From a virus (lineage: Duplodnaviria; Heunggongvirae; Uroviricota; Caudoviricetes): 37,327 nt of DNA. Of the stretch, positions 1 through 28,670 are shown piece after piece. The stretch lies in IMG/VR virus record IMGVR_UViG_3300029886_000148, one strand, 5' to 3'. Made by a program: the position numbers and the translations under genes. Below the pieces are notes generated by a model. That model was not told the DNA's origin and made no database searches. It worked only from the letters and a program-made list of their open reading frames with translations. Position 1 is the first letter of the stretch. Every line of letters begins with the position of its first letter.

Positions 1-288
1 TCAATGGTTGGCGTCATTATCTTTTTCTCTTTCTGAACGTGAATATTGCGGTGGACGGTTCATCAGCTGTGGGGCAAGACGTTTTGCCACCTGAAGAATA
101 ACCACCACCGCAGCGGGAAGCATGAGCAAAACACCGAGAAAAATCATCAGAATCTGCACTTCTGGCCGAGAAAATGGCTCAGGCAGCGACAGGGAGCCGC
201 TTACCGACAGCAGCGCCACCGCCAGCAACATCATTCCGATAAATTCCAGTATCAACACGCTTTTAGGCAATTTACCGATCGCGCGCAT
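1..288 (-). CDS. ybjC: small inner-membrane protein YbjC-like (95 aa)
   Basis: Complete 95-aa ORF, hydrophobic, sits immediately upstream of grxA as in the E. coli ybjC-grxA-ybjM-ybjL neighbourhood (recalled from memory). Confidence 0.6.
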   Translation of the reverse strand: MRAIGKLPKSVLILEFIGMMLLAVALLSVSGSLSLPEPFSRPEVQILMIFLGVLLMLPAAVVVILQVAKRLAPQLMNRPPQYSRSEREKDNDANH

Positions 289-447
289 ACGCTTCCCTCT
301 GCAAAGTGAGCCTTCAGTCTAAAACTTTTCACTGTATTGTGTTTAACAGTTATAGCTTTTAGCAATTAATGCAACAGGTTAAACCTACTTTCAGCGAATT
401 CATTTTAGCGTGATCATTACAGGCATAAATCTATGAGGAGAGAAATA

Positions 448-705
448 ATGCAAACCGTTATTTTTGGTCGTCCGGGTTGCCCTTACTGTGTGCGTGCAAA
501 AGATCTGGCTGAGAAATTGAGCAATGAACGCGATGATTTTCAGTATCAGTATGTAGATATTCGTGCGGAAGGGATCACTAAAGAAGATCTACAACAAAAG
601 GCAGGTAAACCCGTAGAAACTGTGCCGCAGATTTTTGTCGATCAGCAACATATCGGCGGCTATACCGATTTTGCTGCATGGGTGAAAGAGAATCTGGACG
701 CCTGA
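448..705 (+). CDS. grxA: glutaredoxin 1
   Basis: Translation from the internal ATG (MQTVIFGRPGCPYCVRAK...) carries the CPYC active site and is an 85-aa glutaredoxin; GAGGAG RBS just upstream. The track ORF 433..705 has a 5-aa N-terminal extension. Confidence 0.9.
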   Translation: MQTVIFGRPGCPYCVRAKDLAEKLSNERDDFQYQYVDIRAEGITKEDLQQKAGKPVETVPQIFVDQQHIGGYTDFAAWVKENLDA

Positions 706-734
706 TCGTCTGACAAGCCCTCGCGTTGAGGGCT

Positions 735-1112
735 TTATTGATTTTTTCTGTGCTGTGGTTTAAACAAACTACTGATAAATAAGAAACACAATGCCCCCAG
801 CGCACACCAGAACACCGCACTTAATAACCATGCCAGCTCTTGCCAGAATGAGCGCGTCGGTGAAAAAAACAGCCGCATAATAAGCATTGAACAGGGTGCC
901 GCCAGCATTGCGCCAAACAGAGGTTTCAAGACTTCTCTACGCTGTGAAAAGAAGCTGGCAACTGCTCCAGGAAGAATGAAAAACAGCAAGCCGATTTCAG
1001 GATGCCCGGCAGCCCGAAAAGCGCCTTTCATGTGCGTCGCCAGAAAAAGACACACCACAATGAAGAGGACAAAACAGCAGATTGCCCCCGCCCAACGTTG
1101 TTTATGTTTCAC
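735..1112 (-). CDS. ybjM: inner-membrane protein YbjM-like (125 aa)
   Basis: 125-aa multi-TM hydrophobic ORF between grxA and ybjL, matching the size and position of E. coli ybjM. Confidence 0.65.
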   Translation of the reverse strand: MKHKQRWAGAICCFVLFIVVCLFLATHMKGAFRAAGHPEIGLLFFILPGAVASFFSQRREVLKPLFGAMLAAPCSMLIMRLFFSPTRSFWQELAWLLSAVFWCALGALCFLFISSLFKPQHRKNQ

Positions 1113-1381
1113 TCGTTCCTCCTGACACTGCGTCTATCGAACACATTTTTCGCCAGTGTGGCGTTCAGTAAGATAAAGCCGCTTCGCATTCCATGCTAAT
1201 ATAGGCCAACGCAATTCATATAGCCGTTGATACCTAATGTGATTACACTAGTAAAATATATTGTTACTTTACTATCGTTTAGGTGCGCTGAATGAATCTG
1301 CGCCCTGAATTCTGGTAAAAAACATTATCGTAAATTACCATTTCTTTCAACAGCTTACTAGTAAACAAGAAGTTAGCCTCC

Positions 1382-3067
1382 GTGAATATAAACGTCGCCG
1401 AATTGTTAAATGGGAATTACATTCTGTTATTATTTGTGGTCCTCGCGCTTGGGCTATGTCTCGGGAAATTACGACTTGGTTCGATCCAACTGGGTAATTC
1501 CATTGGCGTTTTAGTCGTATCGCTGTTATTAGGCCAACAACATTTCAGCATTAACACCGACGCGCTTAATCTTGGCTTTATGCTGTTTATTTTCTGCGTC
1601 GGGGTCGAAGCCGGACCGAACTTTTTTTCCATTTTTTTTCGCGATGGGAAAAATTACCTAATGTTAGCACTGGTGATGGTTGGCAGTGCGCTGGTGATCG
1701 CCTTAGGGTTAGGTAAGCTGTTTGGCTGGGATATTGGCCTGACGGCCGGTATGTTAGCAGGCTCTATGACGTCAACACCGGTTTTGGTCGGTGCTGGCGA
1801 TACACTGCGTCATTCCGGCATGGAAAGCAGGCAGCTCTCACTGGCACTGGATAATCTGAGCCTCGGGTATGCCTTAACCTATTTAATCGGTCTGGTGAGT
1901 TTGATTGTTGGTGCGCGTTACTTGCCGAAATTGCAGCATCAGGACTTACAGACCAGCGCCCAGCAAATCGCCCGCGAACGTGGCCTGGACACAGATGCCA
2001 ACCGTAAGGTTTATTTGCCGGTGATCCGCGCCTACCGCGTCGGCCCGGAGCTGGTAGCCTGGACCGACGGCAAAAATCTGCGTGAACTGGGTATTTATCG
2101 ACAAACCGGCTGCTACATTGAACGTATTCGGCGTAACGGGATTCTGGCAAATCCAGACGGTGATGCCGTGCTACAAATGGGCGATGAAATAGCGTTGGTA
2201 GGCTACCCCGACGCCCACGCCCGACTCGATCCCAGCTTCCGTAACGGCAAAGAAGTTTTCGATCGTGACCTTCTCGACATGCGTATCGTCACTGAAGAAG
2301 TGGTCGTTAAAAACCATAACGCTGTTGGCAAACGCCTGGCACAACTGAAGTTGACCGATCACGGTTGCTTCCTTAACCGCGTCATTCGTAGCCAGATTGA
2401 GATGCCGATTGATGACAACGTCGTGCTTAACAAAGGTGACGTTTTACAAGTCAGCGGCGATGCCCGCCGGGTAAAAACCATCGCCGATCGCATCGGCTTT
2501 ATCTCGATTCACAGCCAGGTCACTGACTTGCTGGCATTCTGCGCCTTCTTTGTTATTGGGCTGATGATCGGGATGATCACCTTCCAGTTCAGCACATTCA
2601 GTTTCGGCATGGGAAACGCTGCCGGGTTGTTATTCGCCGGAATTATGCTGGGCTTTATGCGTGCTAACCACCCGACCTTCGGTTACATTCCGCAGGGCGC
2701 ATTAAGCATGGTGAAGGAGTTCGGCTTGATGGTGTTTATGGCAGGCGTTGGTCTGAGCGCTGGTAGCGGTATTAATAACGGCCTGGGCGCGATTGGCGGT
2801 CAGATGTTGATTGCCGGATTGATTGTCAGTCTGGTGCCAGTGGTTATCTGCTTCTTGTTCGGTGCTTATGTATTGCGAATGAACCGCGCACTGTTGTTCG
2901 GCGCAATGATGGGCGCACGCACCTGCGCGCCGGCAATGGAGATCATCAGTGATACAGCTCGCAGTAATATCCCGGCGCTGGGCTATGCGGGCACTTACGC
3001 AATCGCCAACGTCCTGCTGACGCTGGCAGGGACAATCATCGTCATGGTATGGCCAGGATTAGGATAA
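1382..3067 (+). CDS. ybjL: putative transporter YbjL (AAE-family permease with two central TrkA-C/RCK_C domains)
   Basis: 561-aa ORF with GTG start; TM-rich N- and C-terminal halves flank a soluble central region; sequence matches my recollection of E. coli YbjL ([20 protein letters not shown]...). Confidence 0.85.
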
Positions 3068-3181
3068 AACTGAAGTTGCCCTGAAAATGAAATTTTTTTT
3101 GCACAACCGCAGAACTTTTCCGCAGGGCATCAGTCTTAATTAGTGCCACTGCTTTTCTTTGATGTCCCCATTTTGTGGAGC

Positions 3182-3224
3182 CCATCAACCCCGCCATTTC
3201 GGTTCAAGGTTGGTGGGTTTTTTG
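3182..3224 (+). terminator. possible rho-independent terminator downstream of ybjL / at the prophage junction
   Basis: Imperfect inverted repeat CCATCAACC...GGTTGGTGG followed by GTTTTTTG. The loop is long, so this is weak. Confidence 0.3.
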
Positions 3225-3303
3225 TTGCCTGAAATTTATGCTTTTTAAAATCATGATGTTAGAAGCACTGTTTTTTAACGATGGCGACAAAATGGCGGCA
3301 GCG

Positions 3304-15736: not shown

Positions 15737-16311
15737 ACCGGGCCTCCGGTTGTGTCGCCGCCTTTCAGGACGCCAGTATGCTGATGCGCATCAACGACGA
15801 TCCCGTTAGAACTCATCACTCCGCCGCCCTGAGTAACGCCACCATTGACCACCACTTCGCTGTTAATACGCGTGCGGTCAGCCTCCAGCACAAACTCACT
15901 GGTTTTCAGGGTAATGTTGTTGGCAGCCTCAATGACCATGGATTTGATGCCCCTGACATACCAGCGCCCGGTGGCGGGTTCATATTCAAACCAGCCGCCG
16001 TCAGGATGCTCTGTCACGCAGGCATCCGCCGACGTCGACGGCGGTGCAAACTGATTCGAATAGATGGCGGGCAACGCAAAGGCGGTTTCCAGATTGCCGC
16101 CCAGACTCAGCAGCACCACCTGTTCGCCTTCCGATGGTCGCCACCATGTCCGGGCATTCCCGGCACGCAGCGTCAGCCAACTGATCCAGTTGGTTTCTAA
16201 GTCACCCGTTTTCACCCGGCAAAGCCAGTTCTTCCTATCCACTTCGGTAACTACACCAGTGCGGATCAGGTTGGTGATAAGGCGCATGATTTCGGTTAAT
16301 TGTGCGTTCAC
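15733..16311 (-). CDS. V: baseplate spike / central hub protein V
   Basis: 192 aa; OB-fold-like N-terminus and Gly-rich C-terminal tip (GGVTQGGGV...GGDTTGGPV); position as P2 gpV. Confidence 0.85.
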   Translation of the reverse strand: MNAQLTEIMRLITNLIRTGVVTEVDRKNWLCRVKTGDLETNWISWLTLRAGNARTWWRPSEGEQVVLLSLGGNLETAFALPAIYSNQFAPPSTSADACVTEHPDGGWFEYEPATGRWYVRGIKSMVIEAANNITLKTSEFVLEADRTRINSEVVVNGGVTQGGGVMSSNGIVVDAHQHTGVLKGGDTTGGPV

Positions 16312-16371
16312 CCTTCCCCCCTTAAAGGTGAACTGTATCTCAATAAGTTGTATTATTATCAGTGTTGTAGT

Positions 16372-16389
16372 TGTACTGTTAACGACACA
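16372..16389 (-). promoter_or_regulatory. putative Ogr-binding dyad (TGT-N12-ACA) of the V late promoter
   Basis: TGTACTGTTAACGACACA, ~60-80 bp upstream of the V start codon, in the short V/ATPase intergenic region. Confidence 0.45.
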
Positions 16390-16398
16390 AGGGAATAT

Positions 16399-17628
16399 AT
16401 GCTTACATCAATAAATGAAATTTATGCTCCAATTCCATACACTAATAAGACAGCAAACTTATTGCTTGACGGTAAAAACCTCATAATAACTGGTGGTAAC
16501 GGGTGTGGAAAAACTAGTTTCATTAGATCTATTTATGATTTCCTTAAAAATAAGATAGATAGACCTAATGATCATAACATCAATAATTTATACAGTACGT
16601 TAGAGTCCTACAAATATCAATTAAATAACGGCGGGCGTGACGACGTTAATTACAACTTTTATTCTGAAGAAATAAAAAACATTGAATTAAAAATTCAACA
16701 ATTAAAAGCCATTAGAATAGAAACAAAAGAAAAAGAAGGTGAAACACGTTCACTATTGAGATTTCACAAAGCTCTACGTGAAGCATCAATTACCTCGCCA
16801 GTTGCCGTTCCTAGGCTATCGGCTTTAATTAATGAAAAATCACATTTTTCTAATGAAGTAGATGGTGATGATTTCTTTGAGAATTATTTGGTTAGCTTAA
16901 AAACAGCTCAGAGCTATGCAATTTCTTTTGATAATGACCATAAGAAAGCTCAGCGGATACAGAAATGGTTTGATAAAATTGAAACTGATATGCAGGAACT
17001 TTTTGAAGATAAAAACCTCTTACTAACGTTTGATAGTAACGAAGGAAAATTTTATCTCAATCAAGATGGTAAAGATAAGTTTACTTTTCAAACATTATCT
17101 TCTGGCTACTCATCAATATTGAGAATTTACGCTGACTTAATAATGAGAGTAGAGATGTGGGGTTTAACACCTGACAGTATCGAAGGTATTATTTTTATTG
17201 ATGAAATAGATGCGCATTTACATGTTTCTTTGCAAAAGCAAATATTAAGATTTTTTAGTCACTCCTTTCCTAAAGTACAATTCATTGTCACTACACATTC
17301 TCCGTTTGTTGTTACATCCGTCACAAATGCCATCATTTATGATCTATCGACCAACGCGAAAATTAGTGATGTGTCTTCATATTCTTATGGTATCATCCTT
17401 CAAGAATTATTCGGAGTAAGTCCAATATCTAAAGTTCTTTCAGATAAGTTAGAACAACTTCAAGATATTATTGACAATATTAACAACAACAATATTGAAA
17501 CTGCCAATAACATAATACAATCCTTAGCACCTTTAGATGAATCCATGGACATCCATGCAAGTGCATTTATTGACTATGCAAAAATGCAGATACTAAAATA
17601 TAAAAAAGCAAACTCTCAGGAGAAATAA
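16399..17628 (+). CDS. ABC-type (AAA_15/AAA_21-like) ATPase, Septu PtuA-like
   Basis: Walker A LIITGGNGCGKTSF, signature-like LSSGYSSIL, Walker B IIFIDEIDAHLH, H-loop TTHSPF, with a long insertion between Walker A and B (SMC/RecF-like). AT-rich. Start taken at the ATG after an AAGGGA RBS, because the track ORF start (16300) would overlap the V start codon. Confidence 0.8.
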   Translation: MLTSINEIYAPIPYTNKTANLLLDGKNLIITGGNGCGKTSFIRSIYDFLKNKIDRPNDHNINNLYSTLESYKYQLNNGGRDDVNYNFYSEEIKNIELKIQQLKAIRIETKEKEGETRSLLRFHKALREASITSPVAVPRLSALINEKSHFSNEVDGDDFFENYLVSLKTAQSYAISFDNDHKKAQRIQKWFDKIETDMQELFEDKNLLLTFDSNEGKFYLNQDGKDKFTFQTLSSGYSSILRIYADLIMRVEMWGLTPDSIEGIIFIDEIDAHLHVSLQKQILRFFSHSFPKVQFIVTTHSPFVVTSVTNAIIYDLSTNAKISDVSSYSYGIILQELFGVSPISKVLSDKLEQLQDIIDNINNNNIETANNIIQSLAPLDESMDIHASAFIDYAKMQILKYKKANSQEK

Positions 17629-18281
17629 TGTTCAAGGTTAATAGAACATATCCTGCACCAAAGTCTCTTTCCAAGAAAGCACGTTATGATGGTGCTGATG
17701 TACATGAAGCACTACAGGAATGTTTTTATGGAAAGTGTTACATTTGCGAAACAAAGAACCCTTTGGATATAAATATTGAACATTTTAAACCCAAGGGTGA
17801 TGATGTGGAAAAAGCTTTTGACTGGGATAATTTATATCTATCATGTTCCAGATGCAACAATATAAAACTATCAAAATATGACAACATTCTTGATTGCTGT
17901 AAAGAAAAGGTATGGGATCGAGTAAAATTACTCCCAGGATATTCTTTTAAAGCAAAAAAAATAACAGTAACAGCACTATTTAATGATATTGAAACGCAGA
18001 CGACTGCTGAGCTACTTGAGAAAGTATATAATAGCGACCATACCATGAGTAAAAAATTAACTTCTGCGGCACTTCGTACCCAAGTAGTGAAAACAACTCA
18101 AAAACTAATTAAAAATATTAATGAATATTATGAAGAAGATACTCCAACAGAACAAAAAAAATACTTAATTGAAAAAATGAAGATGATGATAAAAAGAGAC
18201 GCAGCTTTTTCATCATTTTGCAGATGGATCATTATGGAAGATGCTGAATTAGGTCCAATTCTTGAACCATTTATGGATTAG
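17628..18281 (+). CDS. HNH endonuclease, Septu PtuB-like
   Basis: CYICE...NIEHFKPKG...WDNLYLSCSRCNNIK is an HNH motif set; start overlaps the ATPase stop (TAATG), indicating translational coupling. Confidence 0.8.
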   Translation: MFKVNRTYPAPKSLSKKARYDGADVHEALQECFYGKCYICETKNPLDINIEHFKPKGDDVEKAFDWDNLYLSCSRCNNIKLSKYDNILDCCKEKVWDRVKLLPGYSFKAKKITVTALFNDIETQTTAELLEKVYNSDHTMSKKLTSAALRTQVVKTTQKLIKNINEYYEEDTPTEQKKYLIEKMKMMIKRDAAFSSFCRWIIMEDAELGPILEPFMD

Positions 18282-21344: not shown

Positions 21345-21995
21345 TCAGCGGCTGTCATTGCGCAGTCTGCGCTCCAGCTGCTGTTTGTCTTTTTTCACGC
21401 CACAGCGGGGATCGAGCTGTAACGCATGGTTGAGATGATTAAGGGCAGACGCCGGATTGCTTTCACTCAGGACCGCGCCAATCGCTTTATGCAGACGCGC
21501 CCGTGACTGGTCCGGCATATCCAGACCGTCTGTCAGCTCCAGCGTCTGCAGCAACAGATCAGCATCAAAGCCGGTGGCGGCAAGCATTGCGCTCTGCGCC
21601 GCGTCTGCCATTTCCTCTGCCAGCACGGTCTGCACGTTGCGGTTACCCAACGGCATCACCCAGCCATGACGCAGGGCGTGACGCCCGATCTCCAGCGCCC
21701 CGGCATAATCTCCGGCATCAATGCGCCACAGCATCACGTACATCAGCACGTCATCCTGTTGCGCGCCTCCGCCAGCCAGGACACCCTCTGCCCAGGCGGC
21801 GTATTTCGGCAGCAGTTCCACCTTGATTTCCGCTTTTTTGACCGTGGACTGAACGCCCTTGAGACGGCGGCGGTCTTCCGCCAGTTGCAGCAGCATCAGG
21901 TCATAGCCCGACGCGTGGCGAACGCTGCCGCCCTCACGGGCGGCCTGTTCAGCCTGAACGCGCAGGCGATGCTGCCGTGCGGGACTCAGGCTCAT
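21345..21995 (-). CDS. M: terminase small (endonuclease) subunit M
   Basis: 216 aa; position after N as in P2. Confidence 0.8.
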   Translation of the reverse strand: MSLSPARQHRLRVQAEQAAREGGSVRHASGYDLMLLQLAEDRRRLKGVQSTVKKAEIKVELLPKYAAWAEGVLAGGGAQQDDVLMYVMLWRIDAGDYAGALEIGRHALRHGWVMPLGNRNVQTVLAEEMADAAQSAMLAATGFDADLLLQTLELTDGLDMPDQSRARLHKAIGAVLSESNPASALNHLNHALQLDPRCGVKKDKQQLERRLRNDSR

Positions 21996-21998
21996 GGG

Positions 21999-23057
21999 TT
22001 ACGCTCCGGCTTCTGCTACGGCGGCGCTGAAATCGCCAATCTGGATGTTCTCCACCAGTGCAGCGCAGCGGTAGTCCTCAACCACATAGGCTTCGTTAAC
22101 AGATTCAAAGTTTTCAATCCGGTCACGTTTCGGGTTGTCGATAACTGAACGGCGGCGGGTGTCTTCCTGCCAGTAGATGGACAAGTTATCCAGACGGGTG
22201 ATCAGCAGCGCATTCGGCGGGAAGAACGGCGCACGCACGGCCTGCAGACCGCCCATGCGTTTCTGACTGATAATCATATCGGCTGCCAGTTTTTCACTGT
22301 TTTCCTGCTCTTTGTTGACCAGCGGGAAATACTTGTCAGACAGCAGTTCACGACCGCAAATCACCACCAGATCGTCATCGTCCTGGTAGACCACGTCGAT
22401 AAGCTCATTGACCGCATCCATCACCACAGCGTCCAGGTTGGCATATTCGCCACCTTTCCCGACTTTCACCGCACCCGGTGTGGTTTCGCCGCCCGTGGTG
22501 GTGCTGCCCATGACGTGATCCGGTGCATCCTCACGGATTTTCTGCAGCCAGCCTTTGTTCACATCCTGCAGCAGCGGGTTTTCACTACGGTTGGAGGTTT
22601 TCGCACGCTTCACGCCGTTAAAGCCGATCATGATGCGGTCCAGTGCCTGACGTTTCACGATGGCGTCACGGATACGCACCTGGAAATCCTGAAACTTCGC
22701 CCACAGGTCCAGCTTCGCGTAGGTCAGCACCGTGTCAAAGTTGGTCTGCTCGCATTTGTATTCCACATCGACCATCAGCGTCGGATCGACAGGTTCACGC
22801 TCTTTCGCGGTGGTGTCAGTGGTTCCGGCAATGGTGCTGCCAACACCCAGCCCCAGCAGCTGACCGGACTGCTCAGTCACTGGCGTGACGTTAATCAGCG
22901 TCAGGAAAGCGGCGGACTGCTGGATCTGGTCTTCCAGCGTCTGCTGCACAGACGGCTCTACAGTGAACTTGCTGGACAGTTCTTCAACTGCCACACCGTT
23001 CAGACGTGCCAGTTGCTGCAGGTAAGCGTTAAAAGCAAAGCGGGTATTCTTCTTCAT
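21999..23057 (-). CDS. N: major capsid protein N
   Basis: 352 aa; size and position match the P2 gpN precursor. Confidence 0.9.
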   Translation of the reverse strand: MKKNTRFAFNAYLQQLARLNGVAVEELSSKFTVEPSVQQTLEDQIQQSAAFLTLINVTPVTEQSGQLLGLGVGSTIAGTTDTTAKEREPVDPTLMVDVEYKCEQTNFDTVLTYAKLDLWAKFQDFQVRIRDAIVKRQALDRIMIGFNGVKRAKTSNRSENPLLQDVNKGWLQKIREDAPDHVMGSTTTGGETTPGAVKVGKGGEYANLDAVVMDAVNELIDVVYQDDDDLVVICGRELLSDKYFPLVNKEQENSEKLAADMIISQKRMGGLQAVRAPFFPPNALLITRLDNLSIYWQEDTRRRSVIDNPKRDRIENFESVNEAYVVEDYRCAALVENIQIGDFSAAVAEAGA

Positions 23058-23073
23058 CAGGTTTTGTGCTCCA

Positions 23074-23907
23074 TCAGCAATTGGTCAGAGTGTCAGCGGG
23101 GGCGTTACCGCCTGTTGCACGCTGGCGGTAGTCCTGGCGGCTGTCTTCATGACTCAGCTTATTCACCAGTTCGTTAAAGGCGGTTTGCTGCTCCTGCAGA
23201 GCAGTCTCCAGCTCAGACAGGCGTTCTTCCTGCTCAGACAGGGATTTTTCGGTGCGTGCGCTCAGGTTCTGCTGCTCAGTAGCGACCAGTTCCACGGCCT
23301 TATGCACATCAGAGAACCGGGCGTCATCGGACTGCTCTTTTTTGGTAAACAGCGCCGTGACACGGGCAAACAGGGACGGTTTGTCCTCCTGGATTTCTTC
23401 CAGTTCGATCACCGTTTCCTCTGCAGCGGTAAAGAGATTGGCAGGATTCTGCTTGCGGTTTGCCAGCGGGTTATGGGCTGCACTGGCGCTGAATGTCAGC
23501 ATTTCAGTGCCCAGACTGGCAGGGTCATCTGTAGCAGCCAGGCCGACCAGGTAGGCTTTGCCCGTATCAGCAAACTTCGGGCTGACTTCCATAGAGGTGA
23601 ATAATTTCTGGCCTTTTTTCACCAGTTCCACCAGGGACTCCGTTGGCTCAACGTCGGCATACAGTGCCATCTTGCCCGCCAGCGGACCTTCCGTGATTTC
23701 TTCAGCAAACAGCGCCGTCACCTTGCCGTAGCGGTTAAAGGTGCTGTCCGGCAGATAAGACTTGATGTGTTCAAGGTTAATCAGCGCGGTGTACACCGCC
23801 GGGTTGTAGCTGGCTGCCATCTGTTCCAGCCATTCACGCTGGATTTCGCGTCCGTCGGTGGTGGCACCTTCCACCCCGATGCGAAAACGCTTTGCTTTCA
23901 CTGTCAT
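23074..23907 (-). CDS. O: capsid scaffolding protein O
   Basis: 277 aa, acidic and coiled-coil-rich; divergent from P as in P2. Confidence 0.85.
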   Translation of the reverse strand: MTVKAKRFRIGVEGATTDGREIQREWLEQMAASYNPAVYTALINLEHIKSYLPDSTFNRYGKVTALFAEEITEGPLAGKMALYADVEPTESLVELVKKGQKLFTSMEVSPKFADTGKAYLVGLAATDDPASLGTEMLTFSASAAHNPLANRKQNPANLFTAAEETVIELEEIQEDKPSLFARVTALFTKKEQSDDARFSDVHKAVELVATEQQNLSARTEKSLSEQEERLSELETALQEQQTAFNELVNKLSHEDSRQDYRQRATGGNAPADTLTNC

Positions 23908-23985
23908 GAGCCGTGCTCCGTTAGAAAAAACTTACTGGAGCCTTATGGTTGCGGTGATGGGGGCAGTGAAACAATGCGCGGTATT

Positions 23986-24003
23986 TGTACCGACAACCAC
24001 ACA
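23986..24003. promoter_or_regulatory. putative Ogr-binding dyad (TGT-N12-ACA) in the divergent O/P late-promoter region
   Basis: TGTACCGACAACCACACA lies ~50 bp upstream of the P start codon. Confidence 0.45.
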
Positions 24004-24049
24004 AACCGCAGGCGGGGAAAGACGTCATTCAAGGCTGTAGGTTTGTGCC

Positions 24050-25816
24050 ATGAACACCACACTGACACCCGCAGATCTCGATCCCCGTCGGCAGGCCATG
24101 CTGCTGTACTTTCAGGGATACCGCGTAGCCCGCATTGCTGAAATGCTGGGCGAGAAAGTTGCAACCGTTCACAGCTGGAAAAAACGCGACAAGTGGGGTG
24201 ACTATGGGCCGCTGGATCAGATGCAGCTCACCACCGCCGCACGCTACTGCCAGCTCATTATGAAGGAGCACAAAGAAGGGAAAGATTTCAAAGAGATTGA
24301 CCTGCTGGCGCGCCAGTCGGAGCGCCACGCGCGGATCGGTAAGTTTAACAATGGCGGCAACGAAGCTGACTTAAACCCTAACGTCGCCAACCGCAACAAA
24401 GGCCCGCGCCGTCAGCCGGAAAAGAATGTCTTCACCGATGAACAGATTGAGAAGCTGGAAGAAATCTTCCATTCCTCCATGTTCAACTACCAGCGCCACT
24501 GGTGGGAAGCCGGAAAAACCAACCGCATCCGCAACCTGCTGAAGTCACGCCAGATCGGCGCGACCTTTTACTTTGCCCGTGAAGCCCTGATTGACGCCCT
24601 GCTTACCGGACGTAACCAGATTTTCCTTTCCGCCAGTAAGGCACAGGCCCACGTCTTTAAGCAGTACATCATCGACTTCGCCAAAGAAGTGGATGTGGAA
24701 CTGAAAGGCGATCCGATGGTGCTTCCTAACGGGGCCACGCTTTACTTCCTCGGCACCAATGCCCGCACGGCCCAGAGTTATCACGGCAACCTGTATCTGG
24801 ATGAATATTTCTGGATACCGAAATTTCAGGAGCTACGCAAAGTGGCTTCCGGTATGGCTATTCACAAGAAATGGCGGCAGACCTATTTTTCCACACCATC
24901 CAGCCTGACCCACAGTGCTTATCCGTTCTGGTCCGGTGCGCTGTTCAACCGTGGACGCAACAAAGCCGACAAGGTGGACATTGACCTGTCCCACAGCAAT
25001 CTGGCCCCCGGCCTGCTGTGCGCAGACGGGCAATACCGCCAGATAGTCACCGTGGAAGATGCGGTGCGCGGCGGCTGCAACCTGTTCGACCTTGACCAGT
25101 TGCGCATGGAGTACAGCCCGGACGAATACCAGAACCTGCTGATGTGCGAGTTCGTGGACGATCTCGCGTCCGTGTTCCCGCTCAGCGAGCTGCAGGCGTG
25201 CATGGTGGACAGCTGGGAAGTCTGGACCGACTTTCATGCACTGGCACTGCGCCCATTTGGCTGGCGCGAAGTGTGGATCGGTTATGACCCGGCGAAAGGT
25301 ACGCAGAACGGCGACAGTGCCGGATGCGTGGTGGTGGCACCGCCAGCAGTGCCGGGCGGCAAGTTCCGCATTCTTGAGCGTCACCAGTGGCGCGGGATGG
25401 ATTTCCGCGCCCAGGCTGACGCCATCAAAAAACTTACCGAACAGTACAACGTGACTTATATCGGTATCGACTCAACCGGCGTTGGTCACGGGGTTTACGA
25501 GAACGTGAAAGCGTTCTTTCCTGCCGTCCGGGAGTTTGTCTACAACCCCAACGTTAAAAACGCCCTGGTACTCAAGGCTTACGACATTATCAGTCACCGT
25601 CGTCTGGAGTTTGACGCCGGACACACCGACATAGCGCAGTCATTTATGGCAATCCGTCGCGCCACCACCGCCAGCGGCAACCGTCCGACCTATGAAGCCA
25701 GCCGCAGCGAAGAAGCCAGCCATGCGGATCTGGCATGGGCAACAATGCACGCACTGTTTAACGAACCGCTGCAGGGCGAGTCTGCCAATACCAGCAATAT
25801 TGTGGAGATTTTTTGA
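24050..25816 (+). CDS. P: terminase large (ATPase) subunit P
   Basis: 588 aa; size and position as P2 gpP; reads toward cos together with Q. Confidence 0.9.
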   Translation: MNTTLTPADLDPRRQAMLLYFQGYRVARIAEMLGEKVATVHSWKKRDKWGDYGPLDQMQLTTAARYCQLIMKEHKEGKDFKEIDLLARQSERHARIGKFNNGGNEADLNPNVANRNKGPRRQPEKNVFTDEQIEKLEEIFHSSMFNYQRHWWEAGKTNRIRNLLKSRQIGATFYFAREALIDALLTGRNQIFLSASKAQAHVFKQYIIDFAKEVDVELKGDPMVLPNGATLYFLGTNARTAQSYHGNLYLDEYFWIPKFQELRKVASGMAIHKKWRQTYFSTPSSLTHSAYPFWSGALFNRGRNKADKVDIDLSHSNLAPGLLCADGQYRQIVTVEDAVRGGCNLFDLDQLRMEYSPDEYQNLLMCEFVDDLASVFPLSELQACMVDSWEVWTDFHALALRPFGWREVWIGYDPAKGTQNGDSAGCVVVAPPAVPGGKFRILERHQWRGMDFRAQADAIKKLTEQYNVTYIGIDSTGVGHGVYENVKAFFPAVREFVYNPNVKNALVLKAYDIISHRRLEFDAGHTDIAQSFMAIRRATTASGNRPTYEASRSEEASHADLAWATMHALFNEPLQGESANTSNIVEIF

Positions 25817-26841
25817 TGGGAAAGAGTAAAAAAAACCGCGTAGCGGCGATGAATCAGATCCAGCATAAAAGCCAGACTTCAGCCGAAGCATTCAGCTTCG
25901 GCGATCCCGTTCCTGTTCTGGACCGCCGTGAACTGCTGGACTATGTGGAATGCGTACAGACAGATCGATGGTATGAGCCGCCAGTGAGTTTTGACGGGCT
26001 GGCGCGCACCTTTCGCGCCGCCGTGCATCACAGCTCACCGATTGCGGTGAAATGCAATATTCTGACCAGTACCTACATCCCTCACCCGCTGCTCAGCCAG
26101 CAGGCTTTTTCGCGTTTTGTGCAGGACTATCTGGTATTTGGTAACGCCTACCTGGAGAAACGCACGAACCGATTCGGTGAAGTTATCGCCCTTGAGCCTG
26201 CGCTGGCAAAATACACCCGACGCGGGTTAGACCTGGATACCTACTGGTTTGTGCAATACGGTATGACAACCCAGCCGTATCAGTTCACGAAAGGCAGCAT
26301 CTTTCATCTGATGGAACCGGACATCAACCAGGAGATCTACGGCCTGCCCGGTTATCTTTCTGCCATTCCGTCAGCCCTGCTCAACGAATCCGCCACGCTG
26401 TTCCGCCGCAAGTATTACATTAACGGTAGTCATGCAGGCTTCATCATGTACATGACCGATGCCGCGCAGAACCAGGAGGATGTGAACAACCTCCGCAACG
26501 CGATGAAAAGCGCCAAAGGTCCAGGCAACTTCCGCAACTTGTTTATGTACTCACCTAACGGCAAAAAGGATGGTCTTCAGATTATCCCGTTGTCAGAAGT
26601 CGCGGCAAAGGATGAATTTCTGAACATCAAGAACGTGAGCCGGGATGACATGATGGCGGCACACCGCGTGCCTCCGCAAATGATGGGTATCATGCCGAAT
26701 AATGTTGGCGGGTTTGGGGATGTGGAGAAGGCATCCACGGTTTTTGTACGTAATGAATTAAAGCCTCTTCAACAACGAATTAGAGAAGTGAACAATTGGC
26801 TACATGATGACGTAATAAAATTCCATGATTACTCCTTGTAA
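25813..26841 (+). CDS. Q: portal protein Q
   Basis: 342 aa; start overlaps the P stop (ATGA); size and position as P2 gpQ. Confidence 0.9.
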   Translation: MMGKSKKNRVAAMNQIQHKSQTSAEAFSFGDPVPVLDRRELLDYVECVQTDRWYEPPVSFDGLARTFRAAVHHSSPIAVKCNILTSTYIPHPLLSQQAFSRFVQDYLVFGNAYLEKRTNRFGEVIALEPALAKYTRRGLDLDTYWFVQYGMTTQPYQFTKGSIFHLMEPDINQEIYGLPGYLSAIPSALLNESATLFRRKYYINGSHAGFIMYMTDAAQNQEDVNNLRNAMKSAKGPGNFRNLFMYSPNGKKDGLQIIPLSEVAAKDEFLNIKNVSRDDMMAAHRVPPQMMGIMPNNVGGFGDVEKASTVFVRNELKPLQQRIREVNNWLHDDVIKFHDYSL

Positions 26842-26843
26842 TT

Positions 26844-26882
26844 AAAGCCTCTTCTTTAGAAACCCATCCAAAGAAGAGGCTT
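26844..26882. terminator. hairpin between the convergent Q and NTase genes (possible bidirectional terminator)
   Basis: Inverted repeat AAGCCTCTTCTTT...AAAGAAGAGGCTT (13-bp stem). Confidence 0.4.
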
Positions 26883-26893
26883 ATTGCCACCCG

Positions 26894-27211
26894 TTATATA
26901 CCACATACAAAATTGATCTTAACGCTTTTATCAACAACAAGCAGAGAAGTGCCAACAGACTTAATAAATCCCAGTTCATACTCTTCTGAATGCGTCATTG
27001 TAATAATATGAACAGGAACAAATAAATCAAGCTCCCGCAGCTTTCGCTTCAATAATAAACCATCGACACAATCACCTATCACAAGCATATCAATATCATT
27101 TGCATCGCAAAAACTCTTTAATGCTGACCCAAATACATATACATCCACCATATATAAACTATGATGGATAATAACATCACAGATCGATTCAATCGTATGT
27201 TTAAAATTCAC
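26894..27211 (-). CDS. minimal nucleotidyltransferase (MNT/Pol-beta-like)
   Basis: VYVFGSALKSFCDANDIDMLVIGD fits the GS-x9-13-DxD nucleotidyltransferase signature; ~105 aa; GTG start overlaps the upstream stop; AT-rich. Confidence 0.7.
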   Translation of the reverse strand: MNFKHTIESICDVIIHHSLYMVDVYVFGSALKSFCDANDIDMLVIGDCVDGLLLKRKLRELDLFVPVHIITMTHSEEYELGFIKSVGTSLLVVDKSVKINFVCGI

Positions 27212-27870
27212 TACCGTGAAATTCTTCGTAATAAATCACCCAACTTGTAAAGCTCCACCCCGATACTTTGAGCAGCCTCTTTTGCCTGAGTCGTCAATCG
27301 TCCATTAGGATTGGAGGAAAAAACAACATCACAATTGCCATGCAACCCTATCGCATCTCTTACAGAACCCGCTGTCATATCATAATCATTCGCAGCGATA
27401 ATAACTAAGTCCGCCAAGCCACGTCTTTTAAGTCTATATTTTTTGTTGGTTTCTCGCTCTACAGAGCTTACATGTGAATGTTGATTGAACACTCTATTTA
27501 TAAACAAATGCTCTTTATCAAGATGCTCAAGCGGATTATTAGCTCTTAAAGAAGATGCAATATGCCCAAATGAACCCACTCCTATTTTCTTTTGTTCTAG
27601 TAATCTCATTGCATCACCAGAGATAAATTCAACACCTCCCTTGACTGATAGAAAATCAATTTTTTTATTGTCTAGGTATTCATTTATCTCAGGACATGTT
27701 ATCCGGCCAGTATTGATTGCCCCGATCAAATAGGTGTCACCCTGTGTAGTATTAATCACTAAAGTACCATCACCTATCACCTCTATATTTTCGACACATT
27801 TATTTTCTTGTAATTTTCCTGCCATCCATGAAATATAGCCTTCACTCGCATTTATGCTCATTGGATTCAT
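27211..27870 (-). CDS. hypothetical protein, 219 aa (middle gene of the three-gene cassette)
   Basis: Open frame translationally coupled on both sides; no motif assigned (only a C-terminal R-x5-H, RDAIGLH). Confidence 0.55.
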   Translation of the reverse strand: MNPMSINASEGYISWMAGKLQENKCVENIEVIGDGTLVINTTQGDTYLIGAINTGRITCPEINEYLDNKKIDFLSVKGGVEFISGDAMRLLEQKKIGVGSFGHIASSLRANNPLEHLDKEHLFINRVFNQHSHVSSVERETNKKYRLKRRGLADLVIIAANDYDMTAGSVRDAIGLHGNCDVVFSSNPNGRLTTQAKEAAQSIGVELYKLGDLLRRISR

Positions 27871-28562
27871 CCTATAAATAGTTCAGATGCAGCTTCTGGA
27901 AACCTACTACCATTAGCATCGGTTAAGCCCAAATGTTTTGATTCAAAGTCATCTATATGAACACAAAGCTTTGAAAAAACATTCTTCTCATCTTCACTCA
28001 TGAGGTGATAGTTTTGTTCAACCAGTCGCTGTACTTTTCTATTGTTGGGTAAGATATGAGATTGTACTTTTCTTAACCATACTTCTGCATTTGGATTTTC
28101 AGGGTCAACGCTGTTCTCTTGGGTTGGTCCATATGTTACAAAAATGGTATTGTTTTCTCTGAAGTATTTTTCTAACTCCTGTCTAACAGATTCTCGATTG
28201 TCATATGTTTTAACACCAAAGGTTGCATTTATTTTATCAATATGGCCGTTTTTCCAAGAGCGGATAATTTCATCAGTAAAATGTTCCTCTGCCTTATCAA
28301 TTGTCGTATGGCAATTAGCACATAGAAGAATAATGTTGTCAAAATGACCTCTCTGCTCATCAGTTAGATCAGCATTGGTTCTAGGTCCATTATCAATGGC
28401 ACTAAAGATGTGAGCAAGTTCTCCAATTGTTATATTTTTGTCGCCAGCATCAACAAACAAAGGTTGCAAGCATTGTGGATTTTGGCAAAAGCCACCTGAG
28501 CTGGCAAAAAGCCGTCTAACTGTATTAGCGTTTGGGGAAGCTTTTCCCCTACTGCAAGCCAT
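27867..28562 (-). CDS. HNH-motif protein with an unassigned C-terminal domain, 231 aa
   Basis: CQNPQC ... ELAHIFSA ... NIILLCANCHTTID resembles an HNH/zinc-finger nuclease core in the N-terminal ~90 aa; the rest is unassigned. Confidence 0.6.
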   Translation of the reverse strand: MACSRGKASPNANTVRRLFASSGGFCQNPQCLQPLFVDAGDKNITIGELAHIFSAIDNGPRTNADLTDEQRGHFDNIILLCANCHTTIDKAEEHFTDEIIRSWKNGHIDKINATFGVKTYDNRESVRQELEKYFRENNTIFVTYGPTQENSVDPENPNAEVWLRKVQSHILPNNRKVQRLVEQNYHLMSEDEKNVFSKLCVHIDDFESKHLGLTDANGSRFPEAASELFIG

Positions 28563-28651
28563 GAACTAACCTTAAAAGTATAGAAATTAGGATGTTAATT
28601 TATTACTGAACAACCCTATAAGCAAGCTTGCTAATTGTGGTGAGCGCGCGC

Positions 28652-28670
28652 TCGTATCCCCGCCACGCCT
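28652..28670 (-). other. putative cos site (cohesive-end sequence)
   Basis: Minus strand reads GGCGTGGCGGGGATACGAGCGCGCGCT..., which resembles the P2/186 cohesive ends as I remember them (P2 GGCGAGGCGGGGAAAGCAC, 186 GGCGTGGCGGGGAAAGCAT); orientation points toward Q as in P2. Confidence 0.45.

Follow-up and report, generated by a model that had tools for sequence, protein, structure and literature searches.

The 37,327-nt stretch of DNA analysed here (the window) very probably carries, at positions 28643–28796, the cos site of an intact P2-like prophage (~34.2 kb; Fels-2/Elveevirus type) that has rcdA and ybjL of Escherichia coli as its neighbours. The site is a conserved block of ~150 bp with cargo on both sides, and the two cargo segments are replaced separately. 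Assignment of the block as cos, like the predicted cleavage positions, is based on homology and gene context. P2-type cos is a textbook element; the cohesive ends of P2 and 186 were mapped experimentally and have 19-nt 5′ overhangs.

The predicted cohesive-end sequence and its relatives

The core of the site comprises two features.

28651–28669, minus strand: predicted 19-nt cohesive-end sequence (cosN core), GGCGTGGCGGGGATACGAG, from homology to P2, 186, SEN8 and Cartapus
28643–28650, minus strand (read from 28650 to 28643): conserved flank CGCGCGCT (+20 to +27), the Q-side border of the cos block

On the minus strand these features read in the context ...AAAGCGGGCA GGCGTGGCGGGGATACGAG CGCGCGCT CACCAC.... 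An earlier note, made from the letters of the window, had reported the string GGCGTGGCGGGGATACGAGCGCGCGCT at this place and had noted a resemblance to the ends of P2 and 186. The string is present, with coordinates one base off (the 19-mer runs from 28669 to 28651, not from 28670 to 28652), and the resemblance was confirmed against NC_001895 and NC_001317: the record of P2 starts with GGCGAGGCGGGGAAAGCAC TGCGCGCT, annotated cosL, and the record of 186 starts with GGCGTGGCGGGGAAAGCAT TGCGCGCC, annotated ‘cos; cohesive end’.

The circular junctions of P2 and 186 were rebuilt and aligned without gaps to the window. The 19-nt overhang is identical at 15 of 19 positions to 186 (nucleotides 1–13 match exactly) and at 14 of 19 to P2; the segment from −40 to −1 matches at 31/40 and 29/40 positions, respectively, and the whole segment from −40 to +27 at 52/67 and 50/67. 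For comparison, P2 and 186 agree with each other at 52 of the same 67 positions. The next-best ungapped 67-mer score on either strand of the window is 37/67 (background mean 16.8, SD 3.6); the cos match stands ~9.7 SD over the window background and is the single such site in the window. The pattern GGCGWGGCGGGGAN7GCGCGC, with up to two mismatches, occurs once in the window versus 0.01 occurrences expected from shuffles. Alignment to P2 and 186, which the earlier note had proposed as a check of its cos reading, is thus beyond chance (52/67 and 50/67 versus 37 elsewhere), and homology to the cos sites of P2, 186 and P4, together with a 19-mer identical to that of SEN8 and Cartapus, argues for this reading.

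The window has in common with P2 and 186 the core GGCG(A/T)GGCGGGGA, the GCGCGC flank, the segment from −38 to −1, the three TGCATG repeats at about −124 to −96 and the location between Q and A. The difference lies in overhang positions 14–19, which read TACGAG in the window versus AAGCAC in P2 and AAGCAT in 186. Because four of these six bases are unlike both P2 and 186, the nick positions are assumed. A ‘55-bp cos region’ common to P2, 186 and P4 has been described (Ziermann & Calendar 1990, as quoted in PMC3931495), and the window fits the conserved region flanking cos, both in the alignments from −40 to +27 and in a profile of 56 loci (see below) conserved from −38 to +26.

The 19-mer GGCGTGGCGGGGATACGAG opens the record of Salmonella phage SEN8, where it is labelled ‘putative cos site’, and is in print as the SEN8 cos in the genome announcement (PMC5427200). 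It lies inside a feature of Escherichia phage Cartapus described as ‘putative cos site, homologous to the cos of P2’, and it is also present in Fels-2, Yersinia phage MLG42, 813R9 and ST13-OXA48phi12.1. SEN8 and MLG42 are propagated phages, and Cartapus gives rise to encapsidated DNA. The cos features of SEN8 and Cartapus are annotations by similarity, and those of SEN8, Fels-2 and Cartapus are predicted only, like that of the window; the literature searched yielded no physical end-mapping of the ...ATACGAG subtype of cos. These three phages (Felsduovirus/Elveevirus, Peduoviridae) share with the window the 19-mer followed by CGCGCGC, the block upstream of it (87–99% identity across close relatives in BLAST-aligned pieces) and the layout A, orf62, DinI, variable segment, cos, variable segment, Q. 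What differs from the window is the content of the variable segments: a hypothetical protein plus an HNH endonuclease, and a DNA-binding protein, in SEN8; a DUF4145 protein and two hypotheticals in Cartapus; hypotheticals of 565 and 243 aa in Fels-2.

In Klebsiella phage 4LV2017 the cos reads GGCGTGGCGGGCATACGAG, with a G to C change at overhang position 12; even so, the DNA of the packaging region, from L to Q, agrees with that of the window at ~96%. The change is either a case of natural tolerance at this position or a sequencing error.

The prophage that carries the site

The segment 26842–29530 of the window is 100% identical to five complete E. coli genomes, M7424 (NZ_CP063153) among them. 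The prophage sits between rcdA and ybjL and is bounded by 18-bp att repeats; its excised size in M7424 is 34,188 bp. The attR core, AGGCAACAAAAAACCCAC, is located just past ogr, and attL just beyond the right end of the window, after int. Positions 1–3300 of the window are host chromosome (ybjC, grxA, ybjM, ybjL) outside the prophage. The cos site is missing from the RefSeq annotation of these E. coli genomes; knowing its position defines the two ends of the virion chromosome.

The orientation of the window is opposite to that of the P2 map, with int, C, cox, B and A to the right and Q and P to the left; the capsid, lysis and tail genes lie left of P. The genes that frame the site or bear on packaging are the following.

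25816–26841, plus strand: portal gene Q (Pfam Phage_portal; 94% aa identity to Q of Klebsiella phage KP12 over residues 1–339)
24050–25816, plus strand: terminase large subunit P, the expected cos cutter (Terminase_6N, Terminase_6C and Terminase_5; 99.2% aa identity to KP12, full length)
21345–21995, minus strand: terminase small (endonuclease) subunit M (99.1% aa identity to KP12 gpM, full length; RefSeq ‘terminase endonuclease subunit’)
30115–32529, minus strand: replication gene A, the conserved right-arm boundary (Pfam Phage_GPA, 4e-126; 98.5% aa identity to KP12 A)
29529–30022, minus strand: SOS module with two LexA boxes (29988–30022), orf62 (29961 to 29773) and a DinI/Tum-like gene (29762 to 29529)

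The site is therefore found between Q and A in the P2 order, and the element also encodes its own terminase subunits P and M. Each of the head, terminase, tail and lysis genes compared with KP12 is full length, and most have 94–100% aa identity; the full-length essential genes include M, P, Q, N, O, A, int, cox and ogr. LysB is 85% identical to its KP12 counterpart over residues 17–142, and LysA has no counterpart in KP12. As cos is in the position seen in P2 and 186 and the terminase is full length, the site belongs to an element with an apparently working packaging machine.

In the SOS module, the two LexA boxes match the consensus at 17/20 (CACTGTTTATATTTACAGTA) and 15/20 positions, and DinI is recognized by Pfam at 1.3e-22. 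The placement of LexA boxes ahead of orf62 and a DinI/Tum-like gene is like that in the p95-tum operon of 186, and the predicted induction switch is thus a close neighbour of the cos region.

Two other regions of the prophage showed differences from its relatives. The repressor in the immunity region (35304–36086, plus strand) is only 54% identical to that of KP12, and a 558-aa ‘chromosome segregation ATPase’ present between repressor and int in KP12 and 813R9 is absent from the window, which has a 63-aa ORF instead; this difference matches a minor int-proximal hotspot described in NAR 2026 (PMC13586616). A third cargo island (16300–18281, plus strand), at the P2 ‘orf30’ position flanked by baseplate gene V and by tail gene S, carries a complete Septu defence system according to PADLOC (PtuA 9.6e-140, PtuB 2.2e-99). 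The prophage of M7424, otherwise near-identical, has two short genes annotated where the window has PtuB, and an indel near 17940–17990 distinguishes the two sequences there.

Anatomy of the conserved block and predicted packaging

The cos block as a whole was delimited by conservation and by breakpoints in relatives, and its parts are as follows.

28643–28796, minus strand: whole conserved cos block, ~150 bp (BLAST conservation and breakpoints)
28670–28707, minus strand: proximal conserved segment, −1 to −38, TCATGCAGGTGCATGAAAACCACTGCATAAAGCGGGCA, with TGCAT-type motifs (family consensus; identity with 186 and P2)
28717–28740, minus strand: GC-rich hairpin followed by a T-run (TTTT) (RNA fold −32.1 kcal/mol, z −4.4)
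28765–28794, minus strand: three (T)GCATG repeats, −96 to −124, candidate recognition elements for terminase or an accessory factor (conservation)

A BLAST search against 50,697 phage records showed the block to be conserved in 91 of them. For a wider comparison the core pattern was scanned in one genome per bacterial species, and P2- or P4-like loci were kept if Q, A or psu was nearby. The 131 cos-containing sequences compared consisted of 120 scan loci, the window and reference phage records; 72 of the 131 were unclassifiable, being chance matches in high-GC taxa or having flanks missing. A profile anchored at the cut site was built from 56 distinct P2/P4-type cos regions among the matches listed. 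It is strongly conserved from −38 to +26, reading tcaTGCA.cTGCAT.AAAA.Cg.ccCat.AAGCGGGCA before the cut and GGCGtGGCGGGGA.AgcA.TGCGCGC after it; GCGCGC is at least 80% conserved in the 56 regions, and right after +26 the information drops to background. The profile also shows the TGCATG repeats at −124 to −96 and an inverted repeat at about −66 to −53. The window holds every element of this profile.

The TGCATG repeats are in register in P2, 186, P4 and all Fels-2-type relatives. The 150 nt upstream of cos hold a mean of 4.9 TGCAT motifs, compared with 0.24 on the downstream side (55 loci), and within the window GCATG is seen five times in 28670–28800 (131 nt) versus 0.22 expected, a local enrichment of roughly 20-fold. 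The repeat array thus appears to define the family and may contain the recognition elements. The conserved signal is asymmetric, extending over ~127 nt on the gene-A side and only 7–8 nt past the overhang on the Q side, and similarity to KP12, 4LV2017 and 813R9 stops 1–2 nt beyond the CGCGCGCT flank. As is generally known, the cos of phage lambda (cosN plus cosB) is likewise nicked to give 5′ cohesive ends and has its recognition elements on one side only; its sequence, however, is unrelated and its overhang is 12 nt long rather than 19, and, unlike in lambda, the candidate recognition elements here are on the side of the future right chromosome end.

The hairpin at 28717–28740 is found in most P2/P4-like cos regions and is missing from P2; we therefore rejected it as a universal part of cos and read it as a terminator rather than as a packaging signal. 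It is likely to shield cos from read-through of the tum operon and is probably not needed for packaging. Satellite P4 and P2 have the core cos packaging signal in common (Rousset 2022, PMC9122126).

Identity of the cos block to KP12, 4LV2017 and 813R9 is 87–92%, less than the 95–97% of the flanking backbone, but its identity to MLG42 is 96.7%; the block has therefore had a history of its own. A 66-aa ORF (28631–28831, minus strand) crosses the block. The records of MLG42 and ST13-OXA48phi12.1 call its equivalent a ‘hypothetical protein’, and the SC480 copy, which contains an internal stop, is labelled a pseudogene. As a gene it is probably spurious: it matches no family, and its start and stop fall outside the conserved block.

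Packaging can be pictured on the model of P2 and 186; the observed part of the picture is the homology, the position, the limits of conservation and the intact terminase genes. SOS-dependent induction would lead to excision of the prophage, and the phage's own terminase, gpM with gpP, would recognize the cos block, with recognition determinants almost wholly on the gene-A side (the TGCATG repeats at −124 to −96 and the segment from −38 to −1). The terminase would nick both strands 19 nt apart around 28651–28669 and leave 5′ overhangs. The product would be a linear virion chromosome of ~34.2 kb. It would start at the left with 5′-GGCGTGGCGGGGATACGAG, next to which come island 1 and Q, and its right end would carry A, orf62, DinI, the GNAT gene and the cos block. 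Where the strands are cut, the length of 19 nt for the overhang and the part played by the repeats are predictions from sequence comparison.

Several other explanations of the block were weighed. The site could be a genuine cos left as a relic, never cut, in a prophage that no longer makes virions. Inducibility of the prophage is presumed here, the close copy SC480 has a frameshifted A gene, and the split annotation of the cargo gene PtuB in M7424 indicates that decay occurs in this prophage family. We nevertheless regard a relic as improbable, given that every essential gene compared with KP12 is full length and most have 94–100% aa identity, that the att repeats are intact in M7424 and that the cos core is the same as in productive phages. 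The strong hairpin with its T-run, as well as the start of the P2 old-tin mRNA ~150 nt from cos, would fit a block whose main role is transcriptional, as an insulator or terminator that separates the tum operon from the cargo, with the packaging site elsewhere. This is highly improbable: P2 lacks the hairpin, yet shares the 19-mer, the segment from −38 to −1 and the TGCATG repeats with 186 and P4; the ends of P2, 186 and P4 were mapped at this very sequence; and a second cos-like site is absent from the window.

It is true that the core pattern arises by chance in high-GC genomes (Streptomyces, Myxococcota) and that P4-like satellites have near-identical cos cores, so a GC-rich sequence that resembles cos by chance, or a cos belonging to a satellite, was considered as well. 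The window, however, has 50% GC and 0.01 matches are expected in it, the match spans ~150 bp, the site is bordered by genes Q/P and A of a P2-like phage, and the satellite genes psu, sid and delta are absent. Chance or satellite origin has a negligible probability and is refuted by the extended alignment and the gene context.

Two cargo islands around the cos block

The two variable segments next to the cos block have the following content.

26842–28642 (~26.82–28.64 kb), minus strand: island 1, a three-gene operon (limits from breakpoints in relatives)
28562 to 27867, minus strand: gene 1 of island 1, HNH-like, 231 aa (PADLOC PDC-M68A, 2.3e-29; Pfam HNH_2)
27870 to 27211, minus strand: gene 2 of island 1, 219 aa, no detectable relatives (WP_135960113 is the window's own middle protein)
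27211 to 26894, minus strand: gene 3 of island 1, 105 aa, minimal nucleotidyltransferase-like (weak Polbeta/NTP_transf_2 similarity, below the Pfam cut-off)
28797–29530 (~0.73 kb), plus strand: island 2, with a gene for a GNAT acetyltransferase of 139 aa at 28997–29416 (limits from breakpoints in relatives)

In comparisons with eight relatives, homology of the left backbone ends at 26765–26823, in the last codons of Q (stop at 26841), and the breakpoint between island 1 and the cos block is at 28641–28644. The breakpoint between the cos block and island 2 is at 28792–28796 in seven of the eight, while in 14EC007 similarity extends to 28882; the one between island 2 and the right backbone is at 29519–29531 (29458 in 14EC007), with the DinI stop at 29529. 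To KP12, 4LV2017 and 813R9 the backbone is 95–97% identical, and there is no similarity within 26823–28641 or 28797–29519. The proposal of the earlier note that cargo islands lie astride cos is thus supported, in the form of two separately replaceable segments that flank a conserved 150-bp block.

Its view of what belongs to the cargo requires one correction. The LexA/DinI module, which had been counted with the GNAT gene as cargo between cos and A, is conserved backbone, because KP12 has orf62 and DinI proteins of 100% aa identity and because similarity to all relatives begins again at the DinI stop (~29519–29531). A terminator-like hairpin, CCTTGGGGGCAAGG (29511–29524, both strands), is located at this junction of island 2 and backbone, between the convergent GNAT and DinI genes. 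At the opposite border, the 3′ end of Q (26765–26841), homology ends 20–75 nt before the stop and the C-terminal codons swap with island 1; in line with this exchange, KP12 Q aligns only to residue 339 and with 94% identity, lower than that of its neighbours.

A census of the islands was made in 5,426 complete E. coli genomes. A 2.7-kb query gave a megablast match of any kind in 1,271 of them. The three-gene cassette of island 1 was present in 14 genomes, including ATCC 8739, and the GNAT gene (at least 80% coverage) in seven; five genomes had both. The independent lineages are fewer than 14, because the cassette-only genomes include several assemblies of ATCC 8739 or look-alikes. As both islands are so rare, the match in most of the 1,271 genomes presumably comes from the cos block. 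ATCC 8739 shares 21860–28792 with the window (cassette and cos), followed by a different gene of 225 aa; 14EC007 has the cassette in common and then a P-loop NTPase; SC480 shares 28641–32412 (cos and GNAT) but has a different gene, of 290 aa, beside Q. The cassette therefore occurs with at least three contents of island 2 (window, ATCC 8739, 14EC007), and GNAT occurs with another island 1 in SC480. These observations support independent assortment of the two islands in complete E. coli genomes.

The three-gene cassette between cos and Q, as described in the earlier note, was confirmed by gene order; its genes are translationally coupled. Gene 1 matches the PDC-M68A candidate as well as models of CBASS-type HNH effectors, in its N-terminal 120 aa only. 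Genes 2 and 3 gave no match in NCBIfam, PHROG or PADLOC, and gene 2 also gave none in Pfam or among PDB sequences; the GNAT gene had no match in PADLOC. No blastn match to island 1 was found among the 50,697 phage records. Two cassette proteins, WP_000752436 and WP_001009569, are listed in Table S5A of Rousset 2022 (PMC9122126), where the middle protein of the ATCC 8739 copy of the cassette is WP_012304892; the same table lumps the ATCC 8739 cassette, orf62, DinI and the island-2 gene into one arrangement. In the portion of the text of Rousset 2022 examined, the cassette does not figure among the tested systems. Identity of the cassette with the validated three-gene anti-P1 system of that study is unsupported, as its peptide words are absent from the portion of the supplementary text examined.

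The island-2 protein is recognized as a GNAT acetyltransferase by Pfam (Acetyltransf_1, 4.4e-10), by PHROG (acetyltransferase, 5e-23) and by similarity to PDB entry 1y9w (7e-15). Its gene lies between cos and A, where it had been placed before, and is transcribed away from cos, thus having the position and orientation of old/tin in P2.

Neither the hotspot between A and Q nor the P2-type cos nor the 19-mer is new, all being already published, and no new kind of element is described here. The same interval is said to have been named the ‘TO region’ by Odegrip et al. in 2006. The gpA–gpQ region ‘adjacent to the cos site’ has been reported as a hotspot of anti-phage systems (Rousset 2022, PMC9122126; NAR 2026, PMC13586616), and the locus analysed here is like it in having variable accessory genes between conserved A and Q beside cos. 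Both studies score the A–Q interval as one locus with one ‘arrangement’, orf62 and DinI included. Here, in contrast, the locus resolves into backbone (orf62–DinI), island 2, cos block and island 1, with the islands swapped separately. The refinement added is a finer division of the hotspot, in which two slots, each swapped independently of the other, flank a fixed packaging signal of 150 bp and the SOS module counts as backbone. It matters for annotation and counting, as lumping the two sides of cos inflates the number of combinations of defence ‘arrangements’, and the two-slot layout is useful for engineering of P2-like phages or cos-plasmids.

The cos block is the only sequence conserved among divergent P2-like phages within the variable A–Q hotspot. 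It may conceivably be the cause of the hotspot, by serving as a shared homology arm and by initiating recombination at the double-strand break made by terminase, although we hold this idea only tentatively. If true, recombination driven by the cos block would let each flanking segment be replaced independently. Breakpoints at the edges of the block, its 87–92% identity versus 95–97% for the backbone and the independent assortment of the islands are compatible with such a recombination anchor and do not discriminate it from other processes; the recombination process at these hotspots was described as still unresolved in NAR 2026 (PMC13586616).

In P2 and 186 the gap between cos and Q is only 167–173 nt long and holds the Q terminator, unlike the 1.8 kb of cargo found here. 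Relatives of the prophage carry at this place retron St85 (4LV2017), Hypoth_Ymh (813R9), AIPR/Abi (ST11 phages), an ATPase with RloB (ST13-OXA48phi12.1), DUF4145 (Cartapus) or a hypothetical protein with an HNH endonuclease (SEN8). Among the matches listed, the distance from A to cos is at least 458 nt wherever it is measurable. A short P2/186-type gap of 144–207 nt between cos and Q was seen, again among the matches listed, in at least 19 confirmed P2-like prophages across species, and 0.8–3.6 kb separate cos from Q in at least 21 prophages, plus 4LV2017. About half of the sampled prophages have cargo between cos and Q, a common arrangement in the family though one absent from the P2 and 186 prototypes.
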